64,000 bases of DNA from Thermoplasmatota archaeon (lineage in GTDB: Archaea > Thermoplasmatota > Penumbrarchaeia > Penumbrarchaeales > Penumbrarchaeaceae), in contig JARVGK010000002.1 of the NCBI GenBank assembly GCA_029762535.1, positions 73,603 through 137,602 of the forward strand, written 5' to 3'. Under the pieces are notes generated by a model, which saw only the letters and a program-made list of their open reading frames with translations, searched no databases and was not told the origin of the DNA. Position 1 is the first letter of the stretch. Every line of letters begins with the position of its first letter. The translations under genes were made by a program, and so were the position numbers. This document shows positions 9,943 to 28,200 of this stretch, piece after piece.

Positions 9943-10076
9943 ATCTCAACCCCGAGTTGTTCTTCCATCATGATCTCGAACTGCCTTGAGATTAGCAACC
10001 CCTTCTTCTTGCAATGCTCTTTGTATTTGTCGTATAGATCGGAATCCACGCTCAAAGTGACGTTTCTTGACGGCAT
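9939..10076 (-). CDS. ribbon-helix-helix (CopG/Arc-like) small regulator, 45 aa
   Basis: Manual translation: MPSRNVTLSVDSDLYDKYKEHCKKKGLLISRQFEIMMEEQLGVEI. Its TGA overlaps the ATG of the downstream AlbA gene (ATGA). It lies below the 60-aa ORF-track cutoff. Confidence 0.6.
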   Translation of the reverse strand: MPSRNVTLSVDSDLYDKYKEHCKKKGLLISRQFEIMMEEQLGVEI

Positions 10077-10107
10077 GTTATCACATTCACAGGTAAATGT
10101 CTGCATT

Positions 10108-10304: not shown

Positions 10305-10480
10305 TAGGATTTTCGGATAACGGACGCGGCTAACCGAAGTTCGTGGGGAGAAGGTGCTTTAGCACCCGAAGCCTTAAAATGAGGTCGAGGCTTCGGTTCC
10401 GAAAATCATCCTGCCGCCGTAGTTTTTTCTTGCTCTGTTTTTATTCATCTTTTCGTTATCCGTCGTGGGGGGTGTTCCGG
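10305..10480. repeat. structured repeat element (island family)
   Basis: Begins TTCGGATAACGGACGCGG. Hairpin GAAGGTGCTTTAGCACCC. Ends with the conserved tail CCGTAGTTTTTTCTTGCTCTGTTTTTATTCATC...GTGGGGGGTGTTCCGG. Confidence 0.5.
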
Positions 10481-10662: not shown

Positions 10663-11940
10663 TTATTGTGTCGTTCTTTTCGATCTCCTGCAATATCTTT
10701 CCTGACGTTTTTCCAACGCTTTCCCGACGCTTTCTCTGGCGATTCCTGTATATAAAAGCGGAATCGCGGTAGTGAATACCGGTCCATCCATATACTTTGG
10801 AACGCCGTCGGGCGTGTAATGAGGTAGATACTTCCCGATATTCATCATCCCGGATCCAATTTCTTCCACCCAGCTCAGTTGTGCAAAGAACTTTGCAATA
10901 ACGGGATTCTTGGAGAAGGGCACCACTTTTTCGGGGTCAAGGACTCCCTCGACCCTGTAGTTGCTTGCGTTAGTGGTTTCTACACGATCTTTGTAAATTA
11001 TCAATCGGGCTGGATGGGCGTTCATGTATTCGCGATGCACCAGAAAATTAGCAATAACTTCCCGGAATATCTTATCGCGTAGACTTATCCTAGCGTCTCC
11101 TTCCAGGTAAAATGGGTCTGGAAGATGTTTGGCAATAAAGGCCATGAGCCGGTCGTATGCTTCAATGAGATTGCAATCTATACGGTCGCGGTCGTCATAA
11201 TGGTCCATCTGAACCCGGCGAACCATGGCATCGATCTTGTAATGAGGTAAAACACTCCGTATGGTCTCGTCTTTTCCCAGTAGCAGGATGGCAGCAAGGG
11301 TATAGCCCTCATTCCCGGTTTCCTGATCCTTTCTGAAAAGCCCGGCCTTGAGCAACAGCTGCTCATCGTCCAATTCTCTCCACGGATGATTCGGTCCACG
11401 GGTTAATATGAGATTACGAAGCCTGGGCAGCATGTCCAAACGCAAATCGTCAAGAGTTGTGGCAGAATAAATTATGTTCTCGGTGTATGTCGCCCGCTTC
11501 CGGTTACTAATCTCCGCGATCCGGTGGGGCTGGGTCACACGGAAATCGCCATCATTGCTTCGGTCGAAGACAACACCGTTGGTTTTATGCACCTAGGAAC
11601 TAGCAGGCACTGAAATATGCATGATCTTCTTTCCATCAAGAACATGTATAACGGGATGGAGGATGAACGGCGGATCCAGCTTTTGAGTATTATTGGAAAG
11701 ATTGACCATATCTGTTTTCATCTTATCGATGGATTGCGGATCGATTCCCAATACCCTTCCTTGATCATCAACTCCGAGAAGAATGTCTCCTCCGTCCCGG
11801 TTCAGCATTGCACATATTGTTTCGAATAAACTCGTGGGAAGAGATTTTCTTGCTTCCTTGTATTCTACCCGGATACCCTCGCCCATTGCAAGCAGATGTT
11901 TAAGGCGAATTTGCATCGGGTCACTTTGCATTTTTCTCAT
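10663..11940 (-). CDS. AlbA_2 + HATPase_c_4 protein (paralog), interrupted by an in-frame TAG at 11593-11595 that is immediately followed by GTG
   Basis: ORF 11593..11940 ends ...HISVPASS. It is followed by TAG, then in frame by GTG CAT AAA (VHKTNGVVFDRS...), which continues ORF 10663..11592. Confidence 0.6.
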
Positions 11941-12070
11941 CCTCTTTCATCTGTTCTTCCATCATGATCTCGAACTGTCTTGATATGAGCCAACCTTTCC
12001 TTTTACAGTAATCTCTGTATTTATTATAGAGATTTTCATCGAACCTTAAAGTAACGTTCTTTGAAGGCAT
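11921..12070 (-). CDS. ribbon-helix-helix small regulator, 49 aa (paralog)
   Basis: MPSKNVTLRFDENLYNKYRDYCKRKGWLISRQFEIMMEEQMKEDEKNAK. Overlaps the start of AlbA gene 2 by 20 nt. Confidence 0.55.
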   Translation of the reverse strand: MPSKNVTLRFDENLYNKYRDYCKRKGWLISRQFEIMMEEQMKEDEKNAK

Positions 12071-12101
12071 TTTAATCACTCACTGCACATACTTACAAAT
12101 G

Positions 12102-12458: not shown

Positions 12459-12881
12459 TCAGTGGTTTTTATTAGCTATATTAAAGAGTTCTTTCGTCGA
12501 GAATCTCTTTAATTTGTCCTGTCTATCAAAATCCTTATCTTCAGTCCATATCCCACTTGCCTTAACCGCCAAACCTAAAGCTAGAAAGGGCGTATCTTTA
12601 ATATCGATATCTTTCATGATTTCTTCAGCGAGTTCAAGATGATCTATGAATACATCCGATGGAATCAATTCGATTCTCTCGAGAATTGATAATAATATGA
12701 TGTCAAATTCTCTATCGGTTAACTTTGATTTTTCGATTAGGTAATGTCGATATTTTTCTATCTCTGTTATTACGTAATCTGGAGCAATAAAATTGAACTC
12801 CTCATTGAAGATGATCTTTCTTGTTTGTGAATCTTTGATCAATCCAGCCATGATTCTATTTGAATCTATGACCATCTTCAT
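12459..12881 (-). CDS. PIN-domain protein (VapC-like toxin)
   Basis: 140 aa. Begins MKMVIDSNRIMAG, with the first PIN Asp in the D-S-N context, plus later acidic residues. Overlaps the antitoxin gene by 4 nt. Confidence 0.6.
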   Translation of the reverse strand: MKMVIDSNRIMAGLIKDSQTRKIIFNEEFNFIAPDYVITEIEKYRHYLIEKSKLTDREFDIILLSILERIELIPSDVFIDHLELAEEIMKDIDIKDTPFLALGLAVKASGIWTEDKDFDRQDKLKRFSTKELFNIANKNH

Positions 12882-13571: not shown

Positions 13572-13740
13572 TGAACTTAACGGACGCGACTATGCGAAGT
13601 TTGCGAACGTAGTGAGCAAATTTGGGTGAGGGGCGGGCCGAGCCCCGAACCGCATAGTGGCGTGTTATTCGCCCCGAGCCGTAGGCGAGAGCGCAGCGTG
13701 GTCCGAAGTTATCCGAAGGATAACGAAGGAAGTTGAGGGG
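13572..13740. repeat. structured repeat element
   Basis: CTTAACGGACGCGACTATGCGAAGT...AAATTTGGGTGAGGGGCGGGCCGAGCCCCGAACCGCATAGTGGCGTGTTAT. The tail is GGCGAGAGCGCAGCGTGGTCCGAAGTTATCCGAAGGATAACGAAGGAAGTTGA. Confidence 0.65.
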
Positions 13741-13742
13741 GT

Positions 13743-14141
13743 CTAATGCCCGGATAAGAATTCGGAAGATTGAATGATCCTCACGCTATCATATTGCTTG
13801 ATCTTCAGTAAATGATTATCTCCCGAAATGATATATTCAGCCTTTCCTAAAATTGCTGTTTCCAAGACCATGTTATCCTTTGGATCATCTTCGATGACAT
13901 ATAGAGAATCTGTTATGAAAACGAGATCAGACATCAAGATCAAACTTTGAATGAAAGCATGGATCTTATCATCCGGGACATGGAACTTTTTTCGAAGAAC
14001 CATCTCAGTTTCTGAAAGAATCTGTTCGGAGGTGACAGATCTTATTTTTCCTGACTTGCATCTTGTCAATAATGACCTTTCATTCCCATTCCAGAAAAAG
14101 CCAGAGATGAGAATGTTCGAATCAAGGACTATCCGGACCAA
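13743..14141 (-). CDS. PIN-domain protein (VapC-like toxin)
   Basis: 132 aa. MVRIVLDSNILISG is a classic PIN N-terminus. Ends at TAG. Confidence 0.6.
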   Translation of the reverse strand: MVRIVLDSNILISGFFWNGNERSLLTRCKSGKIRSVTSEQILSETEMVLRKKFHVPDDKIHAFIQSLILMSDLVFITDSLYVIEDDPKDNMVLETAILGKAEYIISGDNHLLKIKQYDSVRIIQSSEFLSGH

Positions 14142-14144
14142 AGA

Positions 14145-14429
14145 TCAATTCTCCTTGGATCTGATTTCCTTTATTGCTTTAAGTACATCTGATTTCTTTA
14201 ACATCTTCTCCTTGGCGAAATCACTTCCCCAATGGAGAAGATTTTGGAAATCCTCATCGGTGGGGATGTCGATCTTTTTCAGGACTATCGTTTCGTTCTC
14301 TCCATACATGGCAAAGAACTCACCGGGTTTGAATCCGAGGAGTTCGCGAAGGTCTTTCGGTATCACGATCTGCCCTTTGGAGGAGAGCCTTGTGATGGTT
14401 ACTTCGGACATGGTAATAAGTAAGACCAT
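14145..14429 (-). CDS. AbrB/MazE/SpoVT-family antitoxin
   Basis: 94 aa. The swapped-hairpin motif is SSKGQIVIPKDLRELLGFKPGE. Directly upstream of the PIN gene. Confidence 0.6.
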   Translation of the reverse strand: MVLLITMSEVTITRLSSKGQIVIPKDLRELLGFKPGEFFAMYGENETIVLKKIDIPTDEDFQNLLHWGSDFAKEKMLKKSDVLKAIKEIRSKEN

Positions 14430-14469
14430 CTTACTATTTCATTTTTTCGGGTACTTGTAGACGATCACA

Positions 14470-14715
14470 TTAAACCCCCGAAATTGCGAATAACGTCCTG
14501 GGGATATGGGAAGTTGGCCGAAGGCCAATTTGGGTGAAGGGTCTGCAAGACCCGTAACCTCATATCCCCATGTTATCTTCCCCGAGCGATAGCGAGAGTG
14601 CAACGGGGTCGAGGCACGAAGTGCCGAAGAAGTTTGAAACCCTGCCGTAAATTCCGTTGTTGCCGTAGTTTTTTCTTACTCTATTCATCGTTCACGTTCT
14701 CCGTGGGGGTGTTCC
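14470..14715. repeat. structured repeat element
   Basis: Stem TCCTGGGGATATGGGAAGT...CCTCATATCCCCATGTTAT. Apex CCAATTTGGGTGAAGGGTCTGCAAGACCCGTAACC. Conserved tail ...CCGTAGTTTTTTCTTACTCTATTCATCGTTCACGTTCTCCGTGGGGGTGTTCCG. Confidence 0.6.
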
Positions 14716-14720
14716 GTTTA

Positions 14721-17318
14721 TCATGCTTTCAACTCTAATTTTTCATTAAATGCTCCAATGAAATTTGTTTTCAGATCTTCATTGTAGAATGGAAGCCCGA
14801 TAATTTTGTATTTCGTATTTTCTGCCAGTATCTCGATTTGATAATTTCCTTCAATGTTTGTTAGGAATTGCTGTTTCCAGTCATCTTTTTCAAGTAAGTG
14901 ACTTCCTTTCGGTTCGATGAAAACCTGGTAATAGAGAATTTGTTTGGTTTTTTTCTCTTTTAAGAATAGGACAAAATCTGGTTCAAGAGAATTTCCATCT
15001 GAAAAGCGATAAAGCTGGAAAATTTTCTGGTTTCTAAGTAGATATATATCTGAATATCTTTTTTGTAATTTATCAATTGCATCGTTTATGAATCTTACAA
15101 AGTATTTCTCTTCTGATGTTCCATAATTTTCTTCATATACATACCAGTCCTTGTTTTTTAGGTCTAATCGTAAATCTAGTTTTAGAGTTTCACTCATCCC
15201 AATACCGATTTCTTTGTCAGATGTGTCATTTACTGCGATATTGATTATTTTGTCTTCTACTAAATCTTTAATTTTGCTTGCTTTGAATAATATAGTCCCG
15301 ACATATTCAGTATAACCAGATTCGATATTGCTTTGAAGTTTCTTCAAAACCTCTGTACATATTTCCAGTTTATCATCACAATTGAGTGAATCTAATTTTG
15401 TAATTGAAGTCGTTACCTCTACCTGAACATCTTTTAAAGCTTCAATGAACTTGCTGATAGATTTTGATTTAGGGAAATATTTTTTCAGGTTATTAAATTT
15501 GTAAAAATCCAACCTGGTTAGAGATTTTCGCATAATTTGAATTCCGAAGTCGTTCAGTTTAAAAATCTTTGATCTTTTCTCTTCAACATCTTTCTTCTTT
15601 TCCCCGTTGAATATAGTAGAATCTCTAACATATCCTGTTCTGAGACCAATTTTATACAATTTATCGATGTCCAAATCTGATATATCCTTGATTTTAGTTC
15701 TATCTGATTTTTTCTTTTCGTTGATGAATATCAGGCCATTAGACCAAAAATCTGATTTCTTAAACCCATCTTTGACTTTCAAATGGATTTCTCGCTTTTC
15801 CGGTGGCATGATGCCAGATTCCACCAAAGCTGTAGTCAATTCTTGAATGTATCTTGGGTTATGGGCACTGTGGTAATAAAGCTCTTCAAGAATTTTCAAC
15901 TCGTTGTTTGGTTCCTCATCGTATTTTCTCTTGAATCGCTCCTGTTCATCTGTTATTGTGAAAGGAAAATATCTAGCGCCTCTCCCGATAAGTTGGGCTT
16001 CTGCGATGGTCGTTTTACCAGGCTTCCCTGCTTTTGCATCTCTAGTATCATAAAGTCTTACAATGTCAAATAGATTGAGAACATCCCAACCTTCGTTAAG
16101 CATACCGACTGCAAAAACAACCCGAATTTCGTTATCTTTATCCTCAAGCGAATTAACTAGTAACTGTTTCTTTTCACTCTCACTTTTAGAATTGACTGAT
16201 AAACACTTATTCTCATGAAATTCTTCTTTAATCTCTGATACCAAATTCTCCAATGTAATGTCATTTTCTTCAAAATAATTAAAAGCCGTATTAAGAATCG
16301 ATTTTTGTTCAACATTGTTTTTTATTTTTGATATGTCGCTAATTTTCAAGGATTTGATCTTTTTCTTAAATTCATCTTCAATAGTGGTAGATTCATCAAT
16401 GGTTCTGGATTTCAACAGGATTACTGGCTTAATAAATTTCTTATGCTTTTCTGCAATCTTTCGTCTATATTGACTTAGGATGACTGACTGTAATGTCCTT
16501 TCTATTGGCTTTAAATCTGCCTCCATCACTTTGACTTCCTTTGAATACCCGTCTAATCTAAACTGTTTTAATGAGTAATCATAGATTATTTTACTATCGT
16601 ATTTATCTCTAATTGCTGGATGACTCAAATCAACGGTGGCGGTATACTCCAGCATGATATTTCCCAGGTTTGAATTGAAGATATTATTTACGGTATGTTC
16701 CCAGGTAGTTTTGGCTAATTTTTCTTCCTTACCCAATTTATTCTTTGTCCAAGCATTGATATGGTGGGCTTCATCGGAAATGATTACGATTTTTTTATCC
16801 TTGAAGTCCTCGTAAGTCATGCTGTTCTCGCGCGGGGTATTCATGAAACAGTGAAGCCCCTGGATTGTGGTAAAATGGATATTGATCGCATCAGGGTTAG
16901 CACCCTCGAAATTTTCTACCGGACTAATGAAAACCTCTTTTTCTCCAAATTTTATGTGTTCGTTGAACAGATATTTTGATGAAAGTAGATTTAAGAAATT
17001 ATCTTTAGTCTTTTCTATGATGTTGGTACTATTCACAAAGAAAAGAAAATTCCGATAACCTTTCTCATAAAGATAGAGAATATTGGCGGCCATCAATAAT
17101 GTTTTTCCGCTTCCAGTGGCCATGTGAAACAGCAATTGCGTTGGTTTGATTCTCCTTTTATCTTTTTCATAATTATAAATGAATCTGCGTATAGCTTCCA
17201 GTTGATATTCTCTCAATTCAAACAAATGATTCAGATTATTTGTAATATTGTCTGGAATCTCAGTACCCAGCAAGCCCTGTTCTGAAAGAACATCATACGT
17301 TTCCTTCAAAGTGGGCAT
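14721..17318 (-). CDS. Type III restriction-modification system restriction subunit (Res; SF2 helicase-nuclease)
   Basis: 865 aa. Helicase motifs LREYQ..., MATGSGKT, VISDEAHH. Positioned immediately downstream of the mod gene, with only a 1-nt gap. Confidence 0.7.
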   Translation of the reverse strand: MPTLKETYDVLSEQGLLGTEIPDNITNNLNHLFELREYQLEAIRRFIYNYEKDKRRIKPTQLLFHMATGSGKTLLMAANILYLYEKGYRNFLFFVNSTNIIEKTKDNFLNLLSSKYLFNEHIKFGEKEVFISPVENFEGANPDAINIHFTTIQGLHCFMNTPRENSMTYEDFKDKKIVIISDEAHHINAWTKNKLGKEEKLAKTTWEHTVNNIFNSNLGNIMLEYTATVDLSHPAIRDKYDSKIIYDYSLKQFRLDGYSKEVKVMEADLKPIERTLQSVILSQYRRKIAEKHKKFIKPVILLKSRTIDESTTIEDEFKKKIKSLKISDISKIKNNVEQKSILNTAFNYFEENDITLENLVSEIKEEFHENKCLSVNSKSESEKKQLLVNSLEDKDNEIRVVFAVGMLNEGWDVLNLFDIVRLYDTRDAKAGKPGKTTIAEAQLIGRGARYFPFTITDEQERFKRKYDEEPNNELKILEELYYHSAHNPRYIQELTTALVESGIMPPEKREIHLKVKDGFKKSDFWSNGLIFINEKKKSDRTKIKDISDLDIDKLYKIGLRTGYVRDSTIFNGEKKKDVEEKRSKIFKLNDFGIQIMRKSLTRLDFYKFNNLKKYFPKSKSISKFIEALKDVQVEVTTSITKLDSLNCDDKLEICTEVLKKLQSNIESGYTEYVGTILFKASKIKDLVEDKIINIAVNDTSDKEIGIGMSETLKLDLRLDLKNKDWYVYEENYGTSEEKYFVRFINDAIDKLQKRYSDIYLLRNQKIFQLYRFSDGNSLEPDFVLFLKEKKTKQILYYQVFIEPKGSHLLEKDDWKQQFLTNIEGNYQIEILAENTKYKIIGLPFYNEDLKTNFIGAFNEKLELKA

Positions 17319-17319
17319 G

Positions 17320-19326
17320 TTATAACACTCCGTAGAAGCGTTTGTTTATTTCTTTGTCCTCGTCTGATACGCCATAATCCTCGTCATCAATTTCGTTGAA
17401 ATTAACATAAAGCTGATTTTTATCCAGACACTCAATTAGGAATGCCTTTTGGTTCTCCAAGTCCAAGTCCTTGAAATCTTGAGCATTTTCATCGAATTGC
17501 TTCGGATCTATTCTGTAACTAAGGAAAGCTTCTTTTTTCATCTTATCCCATATTGCCAATAAATCTTTTATTGTCTTTGCTTCTTGAATTTTATCCATAT
17601 AGGATTCATTCCATTTCATCAGTTCACAATAAATAAATTCACCACCACCTTCCCACTTTACATATTTTGAGATACCAGATTGATCATAATTTTCAATTTT
17701 CTCTATTAATTTACCCTTTGAGTTTGCATTTCCGATAACATTTTTTAATCTCATAAGCGAATCATTTTTACCATAATCCAATTGTTCTATGCCGAGATAT
17801 TTTCTACCCAACTTATGCGCAACTGCACATGTTGTACCACTACCTAAGAAGAAATCCAAAACAATATCTCCCTTATCAGTTCCCATTTCAATTATTCTCC
17901 TTAAAAGTTTTTCTGGTTTTTTACCACGTTTTAATTTAACATTACCTTCATTAGCAATTCCTTCCCAAGGTATATCCGTCCATATATTTGATAATAAATT
18001 TGTTGGAACGAGATTACCATCAATGTTTCTAACCTTGTTATTATAAAAAGTAATTTCTTTTCCATTTAAGATATATCTATCAGTTAAATTATCTCTTCGA
18101 TTAACAAATACTTTATCCAGATTCTTCAAAGATTCTTCCTTTATGTCTAATGTTTCCTTTCCAGCATCAATGTTTATTTCTGTAAATCGAAAGACTCTTT
18201 CCTTATTATTCAAGGCATAGTCCGCTAATTCAGATAAAGTACGATTTGTTCCTAATTCTTTTTTTAAATATCGACTATTTTTAACCTTAAACTTTTCCGC
18301 AATAATATCTTTAATATTTGAATAAGTCCAATTTGATGGGTTTTCTTCAATATTGTCTATCTGAAATGAATAATTTTCATCATAATTAGTTTCTTCGTAT
18401 TGAGTGATGTACTTCCACAACTTTTTAGACTTTGCATAAATTAATATATATTCGGCACTTTCAAAAACTCCCAAATTTACAGTTTTAAAACCAGACGGAG
18501 ATCGAGTTTTTATACTAATAAGATTAATGAAATTATTATCAAATATTTCATCTAGTAATATTCTTAATCTGGATACATGAATGTCGCTAATTTGAATGAA
18601 AATGGCCCCATCCTTACATAGTAATTCTCGTGCAATTTCTAATCTGTTTTTCATAAATGTAAGCCATGTTGAGTAGTTAAAACTATCATTATACTGAAAC
18701 TCATCATTCCCTGTATTGTAGGGAGGGTCAATGTAAATTAATTTAATTTTTCCAGCATATCTTTTTTTCAATGAATGCAAAGCAAGGAGATTATTACCTT
18801 TAATCATGATATTATCTGTTGTTTTAATTTCTTCTATGTTATGCTCTCCTTTTGCATCAATCCGTTTTAAACCAGTCAATACTTTAGGATCGAATAATCT
18901 GTCAATCTCATCAGGAGCAAGAATTTCATTCCAAAATATTTCTTTGCGATTTTTTTCTTCGGGATCTTCCATTCCGCCTTCCAAAACGCAATCTTTGTAT
19001 GGCCAGGATAGAACCACTTCACTACTTTTTGTTAGGTATTCGTTTTGTGTTGTAAGTCCAATCTTGTTTTTGAAAGTGGTGTACGAATCTGGTAAGAATT
19101 CTTTGTTATCAACGAATTTCATGAATTTTTCTTTGTCAAAAATGATTGCTTTATTTACAATTTTAAAGAAATGCACTTTTAATTTTTCGTTTTCAAGAAG
19201 GAGGGAAATCAGCTCATCATCGAGTTTAAGACCAAGTTCGATTATTTTATTTTTCAATAATTTATCATCTGAAACTAAACGTTCATCCTTTTTTAATGTG
19301 TCAATCATTTCATCAATTAACGTCAT
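17320..19326 (-). CDS. Type III R-M DNA methyltransferase (Mod; beta-class N6-adenine/N4-cytosine MTase)
   Basis: 668 aa. Catalytic motif IV IDPPYNTGND precedes motif I FFLGSGTT, the beta-class order typical of Type III Mod. Its start overlaps the upstream ATPase stop (ATGA). Confidence 0.7.
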   Translation of the reverse strand: MTLIDEMIDTLKKDERLVSDDKLLKNKIIELGLKLDDELISLLLENEKLKVHFFKIVNKAIIFDKEKFMKFVDNKEFLPDSYTTFKNKIGLTTQNEYLTKSSEVVLSWPYKDCVLEGGMEDPEEKNRKEIFWNEILAPDEIDRLFDPKVLTGLKRIDAKGEHNIEEIKTTDNIMIKGNNLLALHSLKKRYAGKIKLIYIDPPYNTGNDEFQYNDSFNYSTWLTFMKNRLEIARELLCKDGAIFIQISDIHVSRLRILLDEIFDNNFINLISIKTRSPSGFKTVNLGVFESAEYILIYAKSKKLWKYITQYEETNYDENYSFQIDNIEENPSNWTYSNIKDIIAEKFKVKNSRYLKKELGTNRTLSELADYALNNKERVFRFTEINIDAGKETLDIKEESLKNLDKVFVNRRDNLTDRYILNGKEITFYNNKVRNIDGNLVPTNLLSNIWTDIPWEGIANEGNVKLKRGKKPEKLLRRIIEMGTDKGDIVLDFFLGSGTTCAVAHKLGRKYLGIEQLDYGKNDSLMRLKNVIGNANSKGKLIEKIENYDQSGISKYVKWEGGGEFIYCELMKWNESYMDKIQEAKTIKDLLAIWDKMKKEAFLSYRIDPKQFDENAQDFKDLDLENQKAFLIECLDKNQLYVNFNEIDDEDYGVSDEDKEINKRFYGVL

Positions 19327-21803
19327 TTCTTTTCCTCCTTATTATTCGAAATTAAATTCCAGTTTACGCTTCCACAATTACATCTTACGCCACTTTGTTT
19401 CATTCCATCTGCTGTAATTTTCAATATACCACCACAACTATGACATGAAAAGAGATAATATAAATCTTGAAATGCCTCTTTTATAGGTCGAAAGTCTTTA
19501 TCACTAAAGTTTATCCAATTATTAAAATGAACGTTTGCATTAATTCCCCATTGTTCAGCATATGTGCGTTTATAAATGCTAGAACGCATTGAATCTAATT
19601 CTTCAAATTTTGCCGTCTTTTCTGATTTTTCCCAGGAAACTGATGATTTTTTAGCCTTTTTAATTAAGTCCTTATATCCATCCATTAATGGTATTGTAAA
19701 ATCACCAAGATCTAGCTGGCCGTTTAATTTGTATCGTACTCGTATCTGTAATGAATCACACACTAGCCCAAAATACTCTTCCAAACCGCGTCTTAATCTC
19801 GAAGCAGCAGAAGGAACATCGTTTCTTGTCAAATCTTCTTCAATTTTACTCCAGAGGTCTGCTTGAAGATTTACTTGAGGCCCTGTATCAACTTTCCAAT
19901 TATAGAATTCAACCATGCAACTCTTATTATCAACAACTCCTTCACTTCTCATTTGATTAGCCCATGTCTTATCATGGGTTGTGATTAAAAATTGTCTGTT
20001 TGGGAAATTTGATGCAAGCACGCGACAAATATCTCGCCTATGATTCGAATCCACAGACATTATTACATCATCTAAGATAATGAGGTCAATAAGACCTTCT
20101 GCCAAACGTTCAGATAGAGCCAAATATAAACAAAGCCCCATACTATCTTGATGACCTTCACTGTGGAGGGCTTGTGGAGAAAAAGCCCCTCGGCCATAAA
20201 AATCAACTTCAAATTTTAATGCCGCCCCATCTGGTGAAATAGTCGCGGAAAAATCTTTTTCGTCTGAACCATGTAATTCTTTATATAATTGCACAAAGCG
20301 ATCATTTACATCTTTGTAAAGATTTCCCAATATAGTATCTCTGGAATATTCAAATGTATTTAACAATATCTCTGCTTTTTTATATGAGATACTTGCGTTT
20401 TTAAAATCATTTTTTGCTTTTTCAAGACCTTTTAAATTTTCTTCAAGGCGTGTTAATGTATCCCACGCAGTTTGTTCAGGGGTTATCGGTGGCGCTTTGG
20501 TTTTAACAATTTCTATTAGAGTTTGAAGATTTTGTTTAATTTCCTCAGAAATAAGCATGTGTTTTACTCTGTCGCTATCAAATTCGATCAATGGATATTT
20601 TTCGAGTGGATTAGCTAATGCTATGGATAACTGATTCAAATCTGACGAACATGTTTTCAATTGGATGCTCCATTCCTTTTCCTCAATTTTATTTAATACC
20701 TCAATTATTTTATTTATGCTTCCTCTTGTATTGTTCACACGCTTTGATATGGAATCGGACAAAGATGTAATTCTGTTTCTTTGTTGTGATATTTCTTCAA
20801 TATCAGTCAATTTTGAGGTAAGATATTCATCTAATTTACCGCTTGGCCACTGTGTATCACACAATGGGCAGTTACCCGTGTCATCGATCATAGATTTTCC
20901 AAGTTCAATTAATTGAAATCGATTGTATGTTTTCAATAATTTCGGATTCGATTTTATAGAGTTTAGAAGATTTCTAAGTTCTTTATCAAATTCAATGATT
21001 CCTTTTTGATTCTTTTCGTCAAAGGAATTATGAATATTTTGAATATCTTTTTCAAATATAGTAAGATTGACATGATTGTCGTTGATAATACTGGTAGGTG
21101 GCGTAAGGGCCTTTTTTAACGTATCTGAAGAAACCGAATTCAATTCATTACTTTTTAATGTTTTACGTAATTGATTTACGTAATCCAGTAGCATCTTTTC
21201 ATTAAATGATGTTGTTTGAATTGTTGCGTTAACCTCACCTTTTTTCTCATCTATTGCTTCTTCTTTTGTCTGCTTTTCTCTTTTAAAAGTATTTTCAATA
21301 TTTACAAATGCTTTTCTTATTATTTCAATGTCTGATATATTTAATAATGCTTGAATCTCCTGGGCACGTGTACTACCATCAGAGGTAATATATTTTAAAA
21401 TTTCTCGTCTTGTTAATACATGTTCTCCCCTCGATGCAAGGGATAAAATGGGTTCAAGATTAGGTAAATATTTTTCATCAGATACAACTAACTTAGTGGG
21501 TTGTGCCATATCTCTTTTTATTTCAATAGGAACATTAATTTTTGGAAATTGAATAACTGCACGTACAATAGCATCTTTTGGCTTGTGATCAATATGTGGG
21601 CCACATTCTTTCAATTTGATATTGCGAGTTCCCTCTCCCTTTAAACGAGAAATTCGACCTGTTAAGAGGAAATCAATGGCATCAACAACAGCACTTTTCC
21701 CTGAACCATTTGGCCCCCATATTACTATATTTTTTCCTTGGGGCGTTAGTTTTATATGGGTTATACCCCGCACATTTTCAATTTCAAGCTCAATCAGTTT
21801 CAA
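19323..21803 (-). CDS. SMC/RecF-like ABC ATPase with long coiled-coil insert and C-terminal Zn-ribbon
   Basis: 826 aa. Walker A GPNGSGKSAVVDAI. Signature-like SEGHQDSMGL. Walker B LIILDDV. H-loop TTHD. C-terminal CHSCGG...RCNCG. Confidence 0.65.
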   Translation of the reverse strand: MKLIELEIENVRGITHIKLTPQGKNIVIWGPNGSGKSAVVDAIDFLLTGRISRLKGEGTRNIKLKECGPHIDHKPKDAIVRAVIQFPKINVPIEIKRDMAQPTKLVVSDEKYLPNLEPILSLASRGEHVLTRREILKYITSDGSTRAQEIQALLNISDIEIIRKAFVNIENTFKREKQTKEEAIDEKKGEVNATIQTTSFNEKMLLDYVNQLRKTLKSNELNSVSSDTLKKALTPPTSIINDNHVNLTIFEKDIQNIHNSFDEKNQKGIIEFDKELRNLLNSIKSNPKLLKTYNRFQLIELGKSMIDDTGNCPLCDTQWPSGKLDEYLTSKLTDIEEISQQRNRITSLSDSISKRVNNTRGSINKIIEVLNKIEEKEWSIQLKTCSSDLNQLSIALANPLEKYPLIEFDSDRVKHMLISEEIKQNLQTLIEIVKTKAPPITPEQTAWDTLTRLEENLKGLEKAKNDFKNASISYKKAEILLNTFEYSRDTILGNLYKDVNDRFVQLYKELHGSDEKDFSATISPDGAALKFEVDFYGRGAFSPQALHSEGHQDSMGLCLYLALSERLAEGLIDLIILDDVIMSVDSNHRRDICRVLASNFPNRQFLITTHDKTWANQMRSEGVVDNKSCMVEFYNWKVDTGPQVNLQADLWSKIEEDLTRNDVPSAASRLRRGLEEYFGLVCDSLQIRVRYKLNGQLDLGDFTIPLMDGYKDLIKKAKKSSVSWEKSEKTAKFEELDSMRSSIYKRTYAEQWGINANVHFNNWINFSDKDFRPIKEAFQDLYYLFSCHSCGGILKITADGMKQSGVRCNCGSVNWNLISNNKEEKK

Positions 21804-21993
21804 GTTCTTCCCTCGAAGTAGTTTTTAATACGCTGATAATTTTTTTAGTATCAGCTAATTGTCCTGTTGAATTAAGTTCACGAAGCTTATTGATGGTCAC
21901 CACATTAAATTCATCTTTATCATTGAGGTCTGAAAACATTTTATCAAGTATGTGGTCAATCAATGAAGATGTTTGTATTGTTTCGGGAGTCAT
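21790..21993 (-). CDS. small 67-aa protein, function unknown (operon partner)
   Basis: ORF MTPETIQTSSLIDHILDKMF.... Its ATG overlaps the RHH TGA (ATGA), and its 3' end overlaps the ATPase start by 14 nt. Confidence 0.45.
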   Translation of the reverse strand: MTPETIQTSSLIDHILDKMFSDLNDKDEFNVVTINKLRELNSTGQLADTKKIISVLKTTSREELETD

Positions 21994-22130
21994 TTATTTA
22001 CCTCCTTCATCTGTTCTTCCATCATAATTTCAAATTGTCGGGATATGAGCCACCCCTTCTTCTTACAGAATCCTTTGTATCGTTCGTAAAGGTCTTCATC
22101 AACACTGAGGGTTACGTTCTTTGAAGGCAT
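21990..22130 (-). CDS. ribbon-helix-helix small regulator, 46 aa (third paralog)
   Basis: MPSKNVTLSVDEDLYERYKGFCKKKGWLISRQFEIMMEEQMKEVNK. Confidence 0.55.
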   Translation of the reverse strand: MPSKNVTLSVDEDLYERYKGFCKKKGWLISRQFEIMMEEQMKEVNK

Positions 22131-22161
22131 GATAATCACATTCATCTCCAAATGTCAGCAA

Positions 22162-22174
22162 ATGTATATAAGTA
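22162..22174 (-). promoter_or_regulatory. putative TATA box for the RHH-ATPase-Mod-Res operon
   Basis: Minus-strand CTTATATAC about 35 nt upstream of the RHH ATG. Confidence 0.3.
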
Positions 22175-22189
22175 TTCGCTTTTTCCGTT

Positions 22190-22620
22190 TCTATTCGTTG
22201 TTCGGAACACCCCCCACGTCCATAGAGTAAGAAAAAATTTGGGTATTCGCTTTGCGAATCCGTTTAACATCCGTTAGCCGAGAGTCTGGACTTGTCCAGA
22301 TTTTGGTGGTTCTTTCCGTCTTGTTTCCGTTAAACGAAGGCAACAACGTCATGAATTTACGGTCTCCTTTTCATAGGCATGGTTTCAAATTGAAGATAAC
22401 GGAACGCGGGTATGCGAAGTGAATATGTTTCCAGTGCGGTTCCTCAGCAGAGTATTCATTTGGGAGAGCGAGTGCAACGAAGCGAACCGCATACCCGCGT
22501 GTTAAGTCCTCCGAATGAAGTTATCCTACGGATAACGAAATGAGAATGCAATGAGATCGAGCACCGCAGACCGTTAGGTTGAGGAGCGGAGAAGTTGGCC
22601 AGCCAAGAACGTTGTTCGGG
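22190..22620. repeat. structured repeat elements (two units)
   Basis: 22200-22330: AAAATTTGGGTATTCGCTTTGCGAATCCGTTTAACA. 22390-22620: GATAACGGAACGCGGGTATGCGAAGT...CATTTGGGAGAGCGAGTGCAACGAAGCGAACCGCATACCCGCGTGTTAAGT. Followed by GAAGTTATCCTACGGATAACGAAATG and the tail ...GAGCGGAGAAGTTGG. Confidence 0.6.
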
Positions 22621-22832
22621 ACACGGTGGATTTTTTACTACCAATCTACCCCACAAGGGTTATAGGTCGAGGGTGTCTTGCTTGTAAGTCGAGGGGTTTG
22701 AAATACTTGTCAAACCAAGATTTGACCATGGCGAGGTTTACTATCTTTTGGGTTATCGTTCTGACCATTATTATTTTAGAGTTGCAATATGATTTGTTCA
22801 AATTTTCTGATGAATTCGTAAGTAAAAGAGAT

Positions 22833-25800
22833 TCAATCCTCCTCCTTTATTGGTTTGATGGTTCGAAGGTTCAAAGAAAAAGATCGCCCCTCGATATTTT
22901 CTTCTGGGATATCATCATATCTCGTTATAATAACCTTATCATCAACTTTATCACTGAGGTTTTCCACATTCCATAACTCCCATCGATCCCCACCTTCTTC
23001 CTGACTTAAAAGGAATTCCACATATTCCCTAGAGGTTATGTTTACAATTTTGGAAGAACCTAAATGTGCCTTGACTTCGATCTTAATTTGTTCTCTATCA
23101 CGAATAGCAATGATATCATAGCCTGGATTCTGTTTGGGCATTTGTTCAACTTCGAATCCTTTTAATTCTAACTCTCTTTGAGCAAATGATCTTCCTTTAG
23201 TTTCTATCATCTCATTGTCCTCATATGATGTTCTGTTCCCAGATTTGCCACCACCACCGCCACCAGATGAACCCTTAGTTTCCTCATCAACTCTCTCCTC
23301 TGTATTAACTTCATATTCAGAGTCGTCATCCTTTAATTGAATACCTTCATCTTCCTCTGAATCTGGAGTTCTTTCTTCTCTATTTTGCTCATCAAGTAAT
23401 TTTTCCTTATTGTCTTCTTCACTTTTTGTCGGTTGTTTCGGCTTTTTAGGAAGCATACCAGGAAATGGCTTCTTCGATGGTGGAGTTGACTTTTGTTGAT
23501 CAGAGTCTTTGTGTTTTACATAGTCGTTATTGAATTCTAAAAAAGAGATATCGATCTGTTCATCTGATATTCCGCTGGAAGTCAATTTTTCTCGTCTTTC
23601 GTAATCATTATTACACCTTAAAAGATTTTCATAAGTGTCGGCTTCTCCTGGCACTCCTAAATAAAACGATATTGATCGAGATATTGTAGTTACACTTTGT
23701 TTATCTTCACTTATGAATATTGTTGAACCAACAATGTAAAAATCTCCGGATATTTCGGTTTCATACTTATCAAGTAGTATCAATTTTTTTCGAATTTCCT
23801 TTTTTACTTTAACTTTGATATTTTTAATTCTTTGAATCAATTTCTGATGATCTGATAGTTTATCCGATCTTATCACATATATGTATGAAAGACTGTCAAT
23901 TAGATTTTTCGCCAATTCCGGTTTCAATTGTTTCTCATCATCATTTGTCTCAATTATTTCTTCCTTCAATATATTCTTATCACTAATTTGACGTTTTCCA
24001 AAATACTTACTTACAAACTGGTGATATCTTCTAGATATATTGAAAAAATAAACATCATTATTAAAAGCATTTTTAATCTCCACATCATCATTAATGAATA
24101 TCTCTTTGCTACTTATAATTTGAAATATATTGCTTCTTTCACATAAAAGGGGACAATCATGAAGCAATAATTCAGGAAGTGCTACCATCAAACTATTTGT
24201 TGTATCTAAACATCTTTCGTAGATTTTCATTATTTTGAATCTTAATTCTCGATTATCATTTATATCTTCATCTGAAATGAATTTTATTAATAGGTTGGAT
24301 AATATTTCTTTCCATTCTTCAGGTTTTAATTCATCAATATTTGTTCTAATAATTTTCACTTTATTCTTTAACCAATGAAAAATATTATCCTTTGAACTCT
24401 CAAAAAGATTTAAATTGATAACTGGTAATAAATACCCTATTTCAAAATTATCTTTTTCATTTAATATCCAACATTCTTCCAATGGTTTAGGATCTAGATA
24501 ATGTGTAAGAGGAGGTATGAACTTTGTTTTTAAATCAAACCACCATGATGCATCTGAGTTTCCATAATATAATGCTCTGTTGTATGGTCGATAGTGTACT
24601 CGAATATTCATATATTCTTCATAGTATTCCCAATTGTTTGCTATTAACTTTAATAAGGATATTTTAGATTTTTCAGGCAATTCGTCTAAATTTATTTTAT
24701 CAAATCTTTTATTATAACTGATTTTTTCAACATTATTATAATCTTCATTCACATGTATCGGAATTTCTTCTGTAGAAATTAATCGGGGAAATGTTTTACA
24801 CCCTAACCATCTTAAGATATCTTGATCAATTATTTTCTCTAAGCTATTGTTTTCTTTTTGTACCCATTGTATATCGTAATGATTGCGAAATAATGAGTTC
24901 AAATCACTATTGCCCCATTCTTTTCCCATATATCCAAATTTGGCTTTTATCCATATAACATCTTTTTTCCCCTTCCTTCTAGATGGAATTGGACAATTTC
25001 TAATTCCTACGGGTGCATTTTCTTCTTTCATCAACCATTTATTTTTATAGATATATCGATAATATATTGAGGGATTATCTTTTTGATTCTTGTTCCTACT
25101 ATCCCAATAATTCTCAATAGCTTTAATTAAAGCTTTTTCTGTAACATTTTCAATTCTCTCTACACCCAATGTTGCTAGGATTTTGTTGACTGAATGATGG
25201 TTTTCCAATAACTTATCCCCAAACCATTCATCAACAAACACTATCGGCATCCATTTAGGTACGAGATTTTTCTTGTCTTGATCAGATTTCCAAGTGATGA
25301 TTTGACCCTTTGAATTGGCAATTGATATCAGATGATTACCAACAGGAAGTATTGGTAGACTTTTTATAATCTCAATTTTCTCCTCTTCATTGATTTCATC
25401 TGAATCATGATTAGCCCAATTAGAGAGCCATTTCCAACAAGTCCAAATCCAATCAATATTTCCTGTATTTTTAGATGACTCTTCATTGATTACACTTAGT
25501 AACGTATTATCATCAATCAAACTGCAGTTCATGGATTTTAAAACGTTATATGAAACTTCATTCTCCTCATAACTGAAATGTAACAAGTTGTCACTAATAT
25601 TTGATGTATTTAAAATTTTACGGGCGTTTGTCAAATCACATGTTGTTGATATAAGCTTTATATCAGAGAAATTTAATAATTTTTCTCCATTAATATTGCC
25701 GAATTTTAAAGTGTTCTTTGAATAATCAACAATCACATCCCAAAATAATTTGGTGATTTCATGACTGTTTCTCTCCTCAAATGGTGATAACAATGTAATA

Positions 25801-26930
25801 TTATTTGCTGGATCACCTTTTAAATATTGCTCATCCACAAATTCAACTAATGTATGAACGAGATTATCCATTATCCATTTATTTAGATTATTATTCTCTA
25901 TCGGAAGAATTTCCGTTCTATCACTTTTTACAAAAAAATCCGCATGAAGAAGTATTGGAACTGGGGAGTAGTGTTTTGTCGGATAATACACATGGATTTT
26001 TGGGTAATCGGTCATAGATCTGATTTTACCATCAATGACATATGTACCAACCAGGAAATTAATTCCATCTTCGATAATTCTCGCATTATCTTCTTTATCA
26101 AGGTTAGATAAGAAATAAGGTGGAATCATATCACCCGACATCGTTTTTCGTTTGATTTTCCATTTCGTTACATCTTCAACGCCATCAATGGTATCATTGA
26201 TTACATTTTCCTTATCTATTGTTATTTTCCTTAAGGTTTTACTTGAACCAACAGCATCAATTATCTCCAACATTCTAATATGATGAAATGTTAGGAGAGT
26301 ATAATTTTTCAATGAAATTTTATCAAATAATACTTCGTTATCAATTTCCTCAAGATAATTCAATTTAACTACAGTTGACCAATCCGATTGAGAGGTTAGA
26401 TATTGATCATTCAAAGAAATATCATCCCAGGATATCGAAAAAGGGATCCATTGATATGGTACATCATCATCTGGAAAACCATTATTTTGTAACCATTGTT
26501 TCGCCTTTTCAAATGAGAATTCTACTCCCTCTCCTCCTATGCTAAATATTTGTGGATTATTTGAAATCTCATAAACAGCTTTGAATCCTAATCCCTTTCT
26601 TCCGATGGTCCCAGATTTTTTAATTGAATAATCCGTTCCACACAAAGATTCAATAGCATCTGGCTGTAATCCTACTCCCTTATCCAAGATATAGACCGAT
26701 TTATCGGTCAACAAAACCTTTACCTCTTTAGATTCTGCATCATCACAATTTTGGAATAATTCGTAAAACCATCGTCCAGTGTGGTCAGAAGTTACTCTTT
26801 CTGCACTTCTTGTGTCTCTGATGATTCGTTTGGGATCTCCTTTATATGTCCCTTGTAATTTTTGGTTGAATAAATCAATTGCCTTTTTAATAGGTTTCAA
26901 TATACTATCACCATCGACATACACAATCAT
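22833..26930 (-). CDS. 1,365-aa protein: N-terminal sacsin/Hsp90-like GHKL ATPase domain, long middle region, Gly-rich linker, C-terminal DUF3883-like (PD-(D/E)xK-fold) domain
   Basis: N-terminus FYELFQNCDDAESKEVKVLL and GRKGLGFKAVYEISNNPQIFS match the sacsin-repeat ATP-binding signature. C-terminus is GSSGGGGGGKSGN followed by NPGYDIIAIRDREQIKIEVKAH (the EVK motif of DUF3883). Very AT-rich. Confidence 0.6.
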   Translation of the reverse strand: MIVYVDGDSILKPIKKAIDLFNQKLQGTYKGDPKRIIRDTRSAERVTSDHTGRWFYELFQNCDDAESKEVKVLLTDKSVYILDKGVGLQPDAIESLCGTDYSIKKSGTIGRKGLGFKAVYEISNNPQIFSIGGEGVEFSFEKAKQWLQNNGFPDDDVPYQWIPFSISWDDISLNDQYLTSQSDWSTVVKLNYLEEIDNEVLFDKISLKNYTLLTFHHIRMLEIIDAVGSSKTLRKITIDKENVINDTIDGVEDVTKWKIKRKTMSGDMIPPYFLSNLDKEDNARIIEDGINFLVGTYVIDGKIRSMTDYPKIHVYYPTKHYSPVPILLHADFFVKSDRTEILPIENNNLNKWIMDNLVHTLVEFVDEQYLKGDPANNITLLSPFEERNSHEITKLFWDVIVDYSKNTLKFGNINGEKLLNFSDIKLISTTCDLTNARKILNTSNISDNLLHFSYEENEVSYNVLKSMNCSLIDDNTLLSVINEESSKNTGNIDWIWTCWKWLSNWANHDSDEINEEEKIEIIKSLPILPVGNHLISIANSKGQIITWKSDQDKKNLVPKWMPIVFVDEWFGDKLLENHHSVNKILATLGVERIENVTEKALIKAIENYWDSRNKNQKDNPSIYYRYIYKNKWLMKEENAPVGIRNCPIPSRRKGKKDVIWIKAKFGYMGKEWGNSDLNSLFRNHYDIQWVQKENNSLEKIIDQDILRWLGCKTFPRLISTEEIPIHVNEDYNNVEKISYNKRFDKINLDELPEKSKISLLKLIANNWEYYEEYMNIRVHYRPYNRALYYGNSDASWWFDLKTKFIPPLTHYLDPKPLEECWILNEKDNFEIGYLLPVINLNLFESSKDNIFHWLKNKVKIIRTNIDELKPEEWKEILSNLLIKFISDEDINDNRELRFKIMKIYERCLDTTNSLMVALPELLLHDCPLLCERSNIFQIISSKEIFINDDVEIKNAFNNDVYFFNISRRYHQFVSKYFGKRQISDKNILKEEIIETNDDEKQLKPELAKNLIDSLSYIYVIRSDKLSDHQKLIQRIKNIKVKVKKEIRKKLILLDKYETEISGDFYIVGSTIFISEDKQSVTTISRSISFYLGVPGEADTYENLLRCNNDYERREKLTSSGISDEQIDISFLEFNNDYVKHKDSDQQKSTPPSKKPFPGMLPKKPKQPTKSEEDNKEKLLDEQNREERTPDSEEDEGIQLKDDDSEYEVNTEERVDEETKGSSGGGGGGKSGNRTSYEDNEMIETKGRSFAQRELELKGFEVEQMPKQNPGYDIIAIRDREQIKIEVKAHLGSSKIVNITSREYVEFLLSQEEGGDRWELWNVENLSDKVDDKVIITRYDDIPEENIEGRSFSLNLRTIKPIKEED

Positions 26931-27252
26931 ACTTTAATCGTGGACCTTTGTTTATTTTTGCGGTCATAAACATCATTTTCCGAACTTGTTCTATGCTTTT
27001 ACCATATTTATAAGCTTCTTTGCTTTCACCCAAGCTCCATGTTATTACACCCTCAACCTATTCTTTCCAAAAAATCCACCGTGTCTTTTTACCCCGAAGT
27101 CTGGCTGGCCAATTGGACTTAACTCCTATCATGCGATGTGTTGGATCGGATACTTTCACTTTCACATGGTTATTGCGAAGATTTATTAACCCGGGATCCT
27201 CCTTTGGTTTCATGGGATCATACCCGGACATGGATAAGGAGATGGTGAATAT

Positions 27253-28053
27253 ATGAATGTTTCCGAAAAGGGCAGGGAGAGAATGCTGGCTCGGCTGGAT
27301 GAGGAGATGAGGCTTCGGAAGTATTCGCCTGCGACAATGAAGCAGTATCTCGGATTCATCAAGAGGTTCCTTGATTCCGGATCCGATCCCCGGAGCTTCA
27401 TGCTGGGTCTCTCCGACAGATGCTCACGATCCACGGTCCGATCCGCTTACTTCTCCCTGACGTTCTTCTATCGATATGTCCTTCATCAACCCTTCGACGA
27501 GGGGATCCCCCTCGCAAAGCGCGGTGGGAGGCTTCCAACGGTACTCAATCGCGAAGAGGTCCATTCCATGATCGATAGCGCCGTGAACGTTAAGCACAAG
27601 GTCCTGCTGATGCTTCTGTATTATGGTGGCCTAAGGCTCAGCGAGGCTCGATCCCTGCGCTGGGAGGGTCTCGATTTCGAACGGGGGATCATCCATATAA
27701 AGCACGGGAAGGGGGATCGGGATCGGGTCGTCTTTCTCCATTCCAGGCTTGCAGAGGCGCTTTCCGTATTGGGGGTTAAAAGCGAAGGTTGCGTATTGAT
27801 CTCTTCGGTCTCCAAAGGAGCCTATACACCAAGGGGTATCCAGTTGACTGTCGCGGATATCGCTAAACGGGCGGGGATAAAAAAGAGGGTCAGTCCCCAT
27901 ACGCTTCGGCACAGCTTCGCGACCCATCTCCTTGAGGCCGGGGCTGACGTCAGGCACATACAGAAGCTTCTGGGGCACAGGAACCTGTCGACAACACAAG
28001 TATACACCCACATCGCCGACCGGGAAATGATCAGGATAGTTTCCCTGCTCTGA
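27253..28053 (+). CDS. tyrosine-type site-specific recombinase (Xer/XerA-like)
   Basis: 266 aa. R..., HTLRHSFATHLLEAGADVRHIQKLLGH, and the catalytic Y in STTQVYTHI. No IntI-type extra domain. GC is like the host. Confidence 0.75.
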   Translation: MNVSEKGRERMLARLDEEMRLRKYSPATMKQYLGFIKRFLDSGSDPRSFMLGLSDRCSRSTVRSAYFSLTFFYRYVLHQPFDEGIPLAKRGGRLPTVLNREEVHSMIDSAVNVKHKVLLMLLYYGGLRLSEARSLRWEGLDFERGIIHIKHGKGDRDRVVFLHSRLAEALSVLGVKSEGCVLISSVSKGAYTPRGIQLTVADIAKRAGIKKRVSPHTLRHSFATHLLEAGADVRHIQKLLGHRNLSTTQVYTHIADREMIRIVSLL

Positions 28054-28200
28054 CATGCTAAAACAATGACCAGCTCCAATACGGTACATAGCCTTAGCTA
28101 GGACGCGGGTCCTTTCTTCACCGCCCCTTTCACAGGGCTCCGTTCAGATGCCGCTCCGGGTCGCATAGATGAGTGTTATTTGTTATCCAGTTGTACCTCC

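Follow-up and report, generated by a model that had tools for sequence, protein, structure and literature searches.

The 64,000-nucleotide (nt) stretch of contig JARVGK010000002.1 analysed here (the window) comes from a Thermoplasmatota archaeon and carries, between an array of hairpin-forming repeats and a divergently oriented tyrosine recombinase, a large gene whose predicted product belongs to Tiamat, a family of ATPase-nucleases (TmtA). Tiamat is catalogued as a single-gene system with a PD-(D/E)xK domain (10.1101/2024.10.26.620412), and of 382 complete archaeal genomes, 20 carry it (PMC13321033). An earlier reading of the DNA letters (the original prediction) had called a 1,365-amino-acid (aa) protein here, with a sacsin/Hsp90-like GHKL ATPase head and a DUF3883-like nuclease tail. 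The open reading frame (ORF) is present as one frame on the minus strand, and NCBI has an identical protein from a metagenome-assembled genome under the name 'ATP-binding protein [Candidatus Thermoplasmatota archaeon]'. The gene order of the window recurs in a Logan contig that was assembled independently. The G+C content (GC) of the gene is 0.315, compared with ~0.55 for host DNA, and a block of low GC (~0.30), at ~15-27 kb of the window, encloses the gene. It had been described as the most AT-rich gene in the window, which is incorrect because the neighbouring type III Mod gene is lower still (0.303).

Tiamat (TmtA) is reportedly a single-gene anti-phage system, described by Millman et al. 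in 2022. Eight PADLOC profiles for TmtA match the protein, one of them nearly end to end. The best match is to PDLC03964 (5.8e-66, 221 bits, aa 15-1134), and PDLC03972 (5.5e-37) aligns aa 53-1325 with profile positions 43-1271 of 1302. PADLOC TmtA models are likewise matched by every member of a 19-sequence family alignment, which comprises the protein and 18 full-length homologues and is the basis of all statements on invariant residues below. Because the protein matches these profiles yet is at most 36% identical to public proteins, it is, as judged from sequence, a new and divergent archaeal member of this known single-gene defence family. Shared with Tiamat are the single large protein, the N-terminal GHKL-type ATPase, the C-terminal PD-(D/E)xK domain and the defence-island setting. 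The differences are the divergence of the subfamily (which scores 221 bits with the best model over 1100 aa), the archaeal host and the attC-bounded cassette in which the gene resides.

Relatives of the full-length type are rare. A search of 5.8 billion proteins yielded 22, with identities of 26-33%, and a phmmer search of 1.84 billion cluster representatives, using aa 1-1140 as a single-sequence query, returned 95 matches at E<=1e-30, of which ~45 are collinear full-length proteins of 1330-1430 aa (best identity 35-36%). The wider set from the latter search (1233 matches at E<=1e-3) has only the first ~370 residues in common. Four of six sampled members of this wider set keep the layout of a SACS head and a NOV_C tail, and one carries a helicase module where the nuclease would stand; the effector position therefore looks modular. 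Among GTDB species representatives, full-length relatives are limited to a handful of bacteria (Lacunisphaera, Micavibrio, Planctomycetota and Verrucomicrobiales); the head module on its own is widespread across Bacteria and found also in some Archaea. Matches in a plasmid collection are confined to the N-terminal module, on haloarchaeal plasmids. Given the GC of the gene relative to that of the host, and that the nearest full-length relatives are bacterial, composition and relatedness indicate that the gene was acquired horizontally. A viral origin was considered and rejected, with 0 matches in PHROGs and 0 in a phage genome collection.

The predicted GHKL head was borne out by domain, profile and fold searches. 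Both quoted motifs are present, FYELFQNCDDA at aa 55-65 and GRKGLGFKAVYE at aa 110-121. The N-box (E57/N61/D64), the G1 box D83xGxG87 (D83, G85 and G87), the G2 box G110RKGxGFK117 and a sacsin/NOV-type motif (H329-x2-F332...S336-D337-R338) are all invariant, so that the protein shows the ExxxNxxD and DxGxG motifs, the Gly-rich lid and the Bergerat fold of a GHKL ATPase. R338 of the invariant SDR338 is, speculatively, a candidate gamma-phosphate sensor. The NCBIfam model for the sacsin N-terminal ATP-binding domain (NF047352) scores 61.1 bits against a cutoff of 50. Among solved structures, the best relative by sequence is the sacsin repeat region (SRR; PDB 5v44-5v47, E 2e-6), which is also the best PDB match by fold, and marginal sequence matches are found to PMS1, MutL, MLH1 and MORC3 (E 0.06-0.26).

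The original prediction had described the ~1,000 aa that follow the head as unrecognised, Asn/Lys/Ile-rich low-complexity sequence. That description is wrong: the region is collinear with the 18 homologues, carries numerous invariant Trp, Pro and Cys residues across aa 350-1120, and belongs to an AlphaFold2 core model (aa 1-1140, built from the family alignment) with a mean predicted local distance difference test (pLDDT) score of 84.9. Its richness in Asn, Lys and Ile is AT-driven composition. Disorder and variability are confined to the linker at aa ~1136-1238, which has the lowest conservation (0.28) and in all 19 homologues is 90-129 aa long, net acidic and variable in sequence. The highly charged segment quoted in the original prediction (PPSKKPFPGMLPKKPKQPTKSEEDNKEKLLDEQNREERTPDSEEDEG, aa ~1150-1196) and its poly-Gly linker (GGGGGG, aa ~1219-1224) are both found here; the Gly run has pLDDT <50, and the LKD..(D/E)Y.V strand is confident, conserved and packs on the nuclease. 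Solved structures offer nothing credible for aa ~350-1140, and this 800-aa scaffold without a solved relative is the obvious candidate sensor.

The nuclease assignment also held. The quoted GYDIIAIRD...IEVKAH sequence is present (aa 1270-1289), and Pfam NOV_C/DUF3883, a domain earlier called a restriction endonuclease (REase) domain (PMC3710099), scores 28 bits against a gathering threshold of 22.1 (aa 1256-1328). The E...D...ExK site is intact, with E1243, D1272, E1285, K1287 and H1289 invariant and V between E1285 and K1287 completing the EVK motif. An AlphaFold2 model of the tail (aa 1195-1365) has a mean pLDDT of 88.6, and its best structural match is the archaeal Holliday-junction resolvase Hjc, with restriction enzymes also matched, at identities of 13-17%. 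Set against Hjc and type II restriction endonucleases, the domain here is no free dimeric resolvase but one module, on a tether, within a 1365-aa ATPase. Features of the gene, its protein and its surroundings are collected in Table 1.

Table 1. Features of the TmtA-like gene, its product and the adjoining DNA (positions in the window)
Feature	Position	Strand	Residues	Details
TmtA-like ORF (Tiamat-family ATPase-nuclease)	22833..26930	minus	1365 aa + stop	ATG start; from ORF listing, PADLOC and identical NCBI protein
GHKL (Bergerat) ATPase + transducer-like beta-rich domain	25896..26798	minus	~45-345	
Conserved alpha/beta scaffold	23526..25895	minus	~346-1135	no recognisable family
Disordered net-acidic linker	23217..23525	minus	~1136-1238	LKD..(D/E)Y.V strand and Gly run
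PD-(D/E)xK nuclease domain (NOV_C/DUF3883)	22836..23216	minus	~1239-1365	
TATA-like box	26951..26959	minus		AAAAATAAA; centred ~25 nt upstream of TmtA ATG; read from the sequence itself
attC-like hairpin closing TmtA cassette	22392..22510	plus		TAAC-GGA-ACGCGGGTATGCG ... CGCATACCCGCGT-GTTA; DNA fold z = -3.2; covariance model 79.9 bits
Inverted repeat flanking TmtA gene, left arm	22594..22636			17-nt perfect core GACACGGTGGATTTTTT at 22620-22636
Inverted repeat flanking TmtA gene, right arm	27069..27111			AAAAAATCCACCGTGTC at 27069-27085 ... GGCTGGCCAA
attI-like site	27117..27185	plus		TAAC junction 27120-27123, then boxes TAACTCCTATCATGCGA, GGTTATTGCGAAG; 133 nt upstream of recombinase ATG
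Xer-like tyrosine recombinase	27253..28053	plus	266 aa	divergent from array; Pfam Phage_integrase 1.6e-40
Type III Res	14721-17318			cassette 2
Type III Mod	17320-19326			cassette 2
LmuB/PtuA/SMC-like ABC ATPase	19323-21803		826 aa	cassette 2; 4-nt overlap with Mod
Small ORF	21790-21993		67 aa	cassette 2
Small RHH-like ORF	~21993-22133		~46 aa	cassette 2

The original prediction had also suggested that the neighbourhoods of homologs be surveyed for defence-island enrichment, with consistent housekeeping contexts as the contrary outcome. Four of six homologue neighbourhoods, together with this window, are defence-rich, and a consistent housekeeping context was not found. The neighbours include an AAA_15/21 ATPase, an ImmA/IrrE-type regulator, a 1719-aa DEAD/MZB/DUF559 helicase, a methyltransferase and a transposase fragment (P0019); a methyltransferase, a 1105-aa AlbA_2/HATPase_c_4 protein, a dCTP deaminase and a UvrD helicase (P0014); RelB and AAA_15/21+DUF4276 (P0013); and ARPP-1 and a WYL regulator (P0012). 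No partner gene is conserved across these neighbourhoods, except for a LOG-like gene in two Opitutae. There, a ~635-aa LOG/Lysine_decarbox (SLOG-like) protein is encoded directly before the TmtA homologue (L004 8093-9997 and L006 7922-9832), and the 3-nt gap between the two genes in L004 suggests a two-gene variant of the system.

We consider it probable that the protein is a divergent TmtA, acquired horizontally and carried in a recombinase-proximal cassette, that would act as an ATP-gated dimerising clamp licensing its tethered nuclease against invading DNA. The gene would probably be driven inside its cassette by its own TATA-like promoter; AAAAATAAA is possibly such a cassette-borne archaeal promoter, for a leaderless mRNA. 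The protein would form a homodimer like MutL, MORC and Hsp90, with the large scaffold sensing a trigger (foreign DNA or a viral protein) and the GHKL heads closing upon ATP binding. Hjc-type nucleases act as dimers, and head closure would bring the two tethered nuclease domains together, so that an active nuclease dimer could cut DNA and halt virus or plasmid replication. The acidic tether may hold the nuclease off DNA at rest, which makes it a speculative candidate auto-inhibitor. The GHKL site, transducer-like domain, scaffold, tether and nuclease site are kept under purifying selection across homologues of 26-36% identity. The original prediction of a single-polypeptide sensor/effector defence protein is thus supported by the TmtA profiles and by the ATPase and nuclease anatomy. 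For one Tiamat subfamily, this anatomy is now concrete and testable, in its GHKL residues, SDR338, nuclease residues, tether and scaffold.

Several points weigh against this proposal. The TmtA assignment was made with PADLOC profiles whose cut-offs are not displayed, rather than by comparison with a validated Tiamat protein, and no public protein is more than 36% identical to the one described here. At aa 53-130, Pfam SACS (29.5 vs 32.8 bits) and HATPase_c_3 (23 vs 25 bits) fall just under their gathering scores, and Pfam HATPase_c is also just sub-threshold. The two Opitutae homologues lie between the 635-aa LOG-like gene and purD and thus have housekeeping flanks. What is proposed on dimerisation, trigger and nuclease target is drawn from GHKL and Hjc precedents, and the defence role of protein and subfamily is read from sequence and models rather than from experiment. 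Reviews still list Tiamat as a system of unknown mechanism (PMC12926258), and a literature search for its mechanism found none.

The head and scaffold could also be read in terms of abortive infection, in which they would act as a chaperone-type sensor and bind a viral protein as 'client', and the freed nuclease would degrade host and viral DNA alike, so that the cell dies or arrests. The closest structural relatives include the protein-handling GHKLs full-length Hsp90, GRP94 and sacsin, and the 800-aa scaffold has no DNA-binding or modification-reading domain recognisable by Pfam or fold searches. Moreover, Hjc-like nucleases are structure-specific, not sequence-specific. However, the DNA-handling GHKLs (MutL on DNA, MORC2 with DNA, ParE/topo II and SMCHD1) match the fold equally well, and neither an immunity or antitoxin partner nor any sign of toxicity accompanies the gene. 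The findings fit both logics alike; we regard abortive infection as the less probable of the two.

Comparisons with other known proteins help to place this architecture. NO VEIN (NOV), a protein of plants, is the source of Pfam NOV_C, the domain that the C-terminal region matches above threshold, and NOV also carries a sacsin-like N-terminal ATPase, which gives the same pairing of head and tail. NOV differs in that it is far larger, is a nuclear protein of eukaryotes and acts in development, and the likeness runs through the Pfam domain rather than a direct sequence comparison. Sacsin (4,579 aa), which is chaperone-like, eukaryotic and combines three SRRs with a DnaJ and a HEPN domain (PMC3710099), has the head in common with the TmtA-like protein. 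The latter has one SRR-like head, a different scaffold, a nuclease and, in a Pfam scan, neither DnaJ nor HEPN, and is not an ortholog. Given these likenesses in head and tail (NO VEIN) or in the head (sacsin), insight into TmtA may illuminate such eukaryotic proteins of obscure biochemistry.

The original prediction had further invoked MORC/Paris-like logic, and this survives in part. A MORC-like fold is present, as is the broad scheme in which an ATPase sensor governs a nuclease effector; this scheme is the whole of the likeness to PARIS (AriA/AriB). Membership of MORC is not supported: a Pfam scan finds no MORC or MutL domain, no CW, S5-specific or hinge domain was detected in the protein, and the likeness to MORC, MutL, SMCHD1 and type II topoisomerases is marginal in sequence and confined to the level of the fold. 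MutL, in addition, has a C-terminal endonuclease unlike the PD-(D/E)xK fold of the tail. PARIS splits its functions between two proteins, an ABC ATPase and a Toprim nuclease, and in PADLOC the TmtA-like protein has no AriA/AriB match, which is seen only, and weakly, for the neighbouring 826-aa ABC ATPase.

The gene had been placed by the original prediction as the first module of a cassette array next to the recombinase, and the surrounding DNA agrees, with eight covarying hairpins and an exact junction at TAAC 27120. Imperfect palindromes of ~100 nt with the form TAAC-GGA-stem...stem-GTTA repeat between the genes and fold as hairpins. A covariance model seeded with four sites recovered four more outside the seed, to give attC-like sites at 3631, 4238, 8350, 12314, 13177, 13572, 14485 and 22392, all on the plus strand; a degenerate attC-like copy lies near 10313-10405. 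In an alignment that was itself fitted to the covariance model, 93.5% of cells in the array stems are paired and 13 of 25 pairs are compensatory; none of 500 shuffles was as good, and slid controls reached at most 46%. The hairpin that closes the TmtA cassette shows compensatory changes relative to its sister sites, and examples of stem covariation are CGCGACTAT/ATAGTCGCG, CGCGGGTAT/ATACCCGCG, CGCGAGTAT/ATACTCGCG and TGGGGATAT/ATATCCCCA. No extrahelical bases are evident in the attC-like stems. The model found no sites near other TmtA homologues or related recombinases, which leaves room for other attC types there because the model is specific to the site type of this genome.

The flanking genes all read leftwards to their own hairpins and the recombinase is divergent, which is the classical layout of integrase, attI and cassettes. 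From the hairpin array and the exact TAAC insertion junction, the TmtA gene is assigned to cassette 1 (~22398-27119, 4.7 kb), whose interior (22511-27119) holds it as the sole gene; cassette 2 spans 14582-22391 (7.8 kb). When the window is compared with a sister locus (L088) whose recombinase is 94% identical and whose host-side synteny is the same, two positions differ between TAAC (27120) and the start of the recombinase, and the sequences are unrelated leftwards. In three further independent contigs (L091, L092 and L094) the first base is that of the TAAC junction, which is what a population with differing first cassettes should show. Another archaeon (L089) likewise keeps the boxes TAACTCCTAT..GCGA and GTTATYGCGAAG, upstream of a recombinase that is 59% identical. 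In the archaeon of the window, a defence gene of bacterial type thus sits in a cassette that was inserted site-specifically and is variable among strains. The idea of an integrative element targeting a tRNA was rejected, since neither a tRNA nor an Rfam family lies within the island or close to it.

The recombinase falls below both relevant NCBIfam cutoffs, scoring 187 bits with integron integrase TIGR02249 (cutoff 265) and 185 bits with XerA_Arch (cutoff 220). It is collinear with Pyrococcus abyssi XerA (4a8e), and compared with VchIntIA (2a3v) it has ~44 aa fewer at the IntI-specific domain, where its residues 167-195 (29 aa) face residues 174-246 (73 aa). This insertion is not fully conserved in a subgroup of 'integron-like' recombinases (Smyshlyaev et al., PMC8138268). 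The family is very large and archaeal, with members of ~260-270 aa and thousands of homologues of at least 50% identity, in Thermoplasmatota, Woesearchaeota, Nanoarchaeota and Altiarchaeales. Near the 59%-identical recombinase (L089 1-9630), the divergent neighbours are three TIR/ThsB-like genes, a 1172-aa fusion of SNF2 helicase and NOV_C/DUF3883, and a 1391-aa unknown protein, so that a site of this type bears a further load of defence genes.

We tentatively suggest, without holding it to be the likelier case, that Xer-like recombinases of ~265 aa without the IntI domain run an integron-like platform, consisting of an attI-like site (TAACTCCTAT...GTTATYGCGAAG) and attC-like hairpins, that stockpiles multi-kb defence cassettes. 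In common with integrons are the TAAC...GTTA hairpins in one orientation between co-oriented genes, the divergent tyrosine recombinase, the fixed junction and the cassettes for toxin-antitoxin, restriction-modification (R-M) and defence functions. In contrast to integrons, the recombinase lacks the IntI-specific domain, no extrahelical bases are evident, and the cassettes of 4.7 and 7.8 kb exceed the 4-kb attC spacing of integron surveys. Archaeal integrons with true IntIs have cassettes that include R-M functions (Ghaly et al. 2022, PMC9668308), and bacterial integron cassettes encode defence systems (10.1101/2024.07.02.601719). If the suggestion is right, TmtA would be an immune cassette that can move and be exchanged and that has passed from Bacteria into Archaea, and the idea of integrons as defence biobanks would extend to Archaea and to unusually large cassettes. 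Standard integron finders would miss such arrays because they rely on the IntI-specific domain and on attC spacing of <=4 kb, and the greater novelty may lie in the carrier, not in the gene.

The position beside a site-specific recombinase brings up a second alternative, in which a MutL-like ATPase joined to an Hjc-like resolvase would serve not defence but DNA repair or recombination, on host or cassette-recombination intermediates. The resemblance of the head to MutL, the archaeal Hjc as best structural match of the tail and the housekeeping neighbours of the two Opitutae homologues would all fit such a role. This reading is very improbable in our estimation, because the gene is accessory and foreign in composition, is absent from the same site in sister genomes, and belongs to a very rare family (the 95 clusters given above) spread patchily over distant phyla. 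Furthermore, every family member matches the TmtA defence models, most neighbourhoods are defence islands, and no homologue lies near other attC-like arrays of the type that the covariance model recognises. Less credible still is a decaying or non-functional passenger (a chance long ORF, or a recent arrival silent in this archaeon): the extreme mismatch in composition with the host is in keeping with it, whereas an intact frame of 1365 codons would arise by chance with a probability of about 1e-48 at this GC, given a random expectation of ~0.077 stops per codon, all catalytic and structural family invariants are kept, and a plausible TATA-like box lies at -25.

The TmtA gene is also flanked, just inside the cassette bounds, by the inverted repeat listed in Table 1, with an inverted-flank score of 34 compared with 19.1 +/- 2.2 for shuffled sequences. 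An invertible switch acting through its 17-nt core is not favoured, since the TATA-like box lies inside the repeat-bounded segment and inversion would leave the promoter coupled to the gene. Cassette 2 is similarly flanked just inside its bounds by inverted repeats (14645-14684 / 22203-22362) with a 16-nt perfect core. The scores of these two large defence cassettes are 33-34, against ~19 +/- 2 for shuffles, and the smaller cassettes are not clearly so flanked. In a circularised cassette, the arms would bracket the attC-like site. A short, conserved palindrome, GAAGTTATCC-N4-GGATAACGAA, occurs at 13705-13727 and 22517-22539, at distances from attC-like sites of ~35 nt and a few nt, respectively, and may be a second recombinase-binding element.

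Cassette 2 may be a composite defence operon of R-M and ATPase genes (Table 1). A 139-nt direct repeat (69-77% identity) at 9947-10085, 11941-12079 and 22001-22139 spans a small RHH-like gene (MPSKNVTLSVDEDLYERYKGF...), and three different cassettes therefore begin with a related regulator- or antitoxin-like gene. Toxin-antitoxin cassettes, which are typical stabilisers of cassette arrays, are found at 12459-12881 (PIN_2) and 13743-14460 (MazE-like and PIN_3), each with attC-like bounds. On the minus strand at 10663-11940, in a further cassette, ORFs with Schlafen AlbA_2 and HATPase_c_4 domains form one frame with a single in-frame TAG (..SVPASS*VHKTNG..), which is either a pseudogene or a case of a read-through or recoded stop; some Thermoplasmatota decode UAG as pyrrolysine. 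On the host side, ~100 nt downstream of the recombinase stop, a half attC-like arm (CGGGTCGCATAGATGAGTGTTA) at 28157-28178 may be a remnant or may mark the outer edge of the platform.

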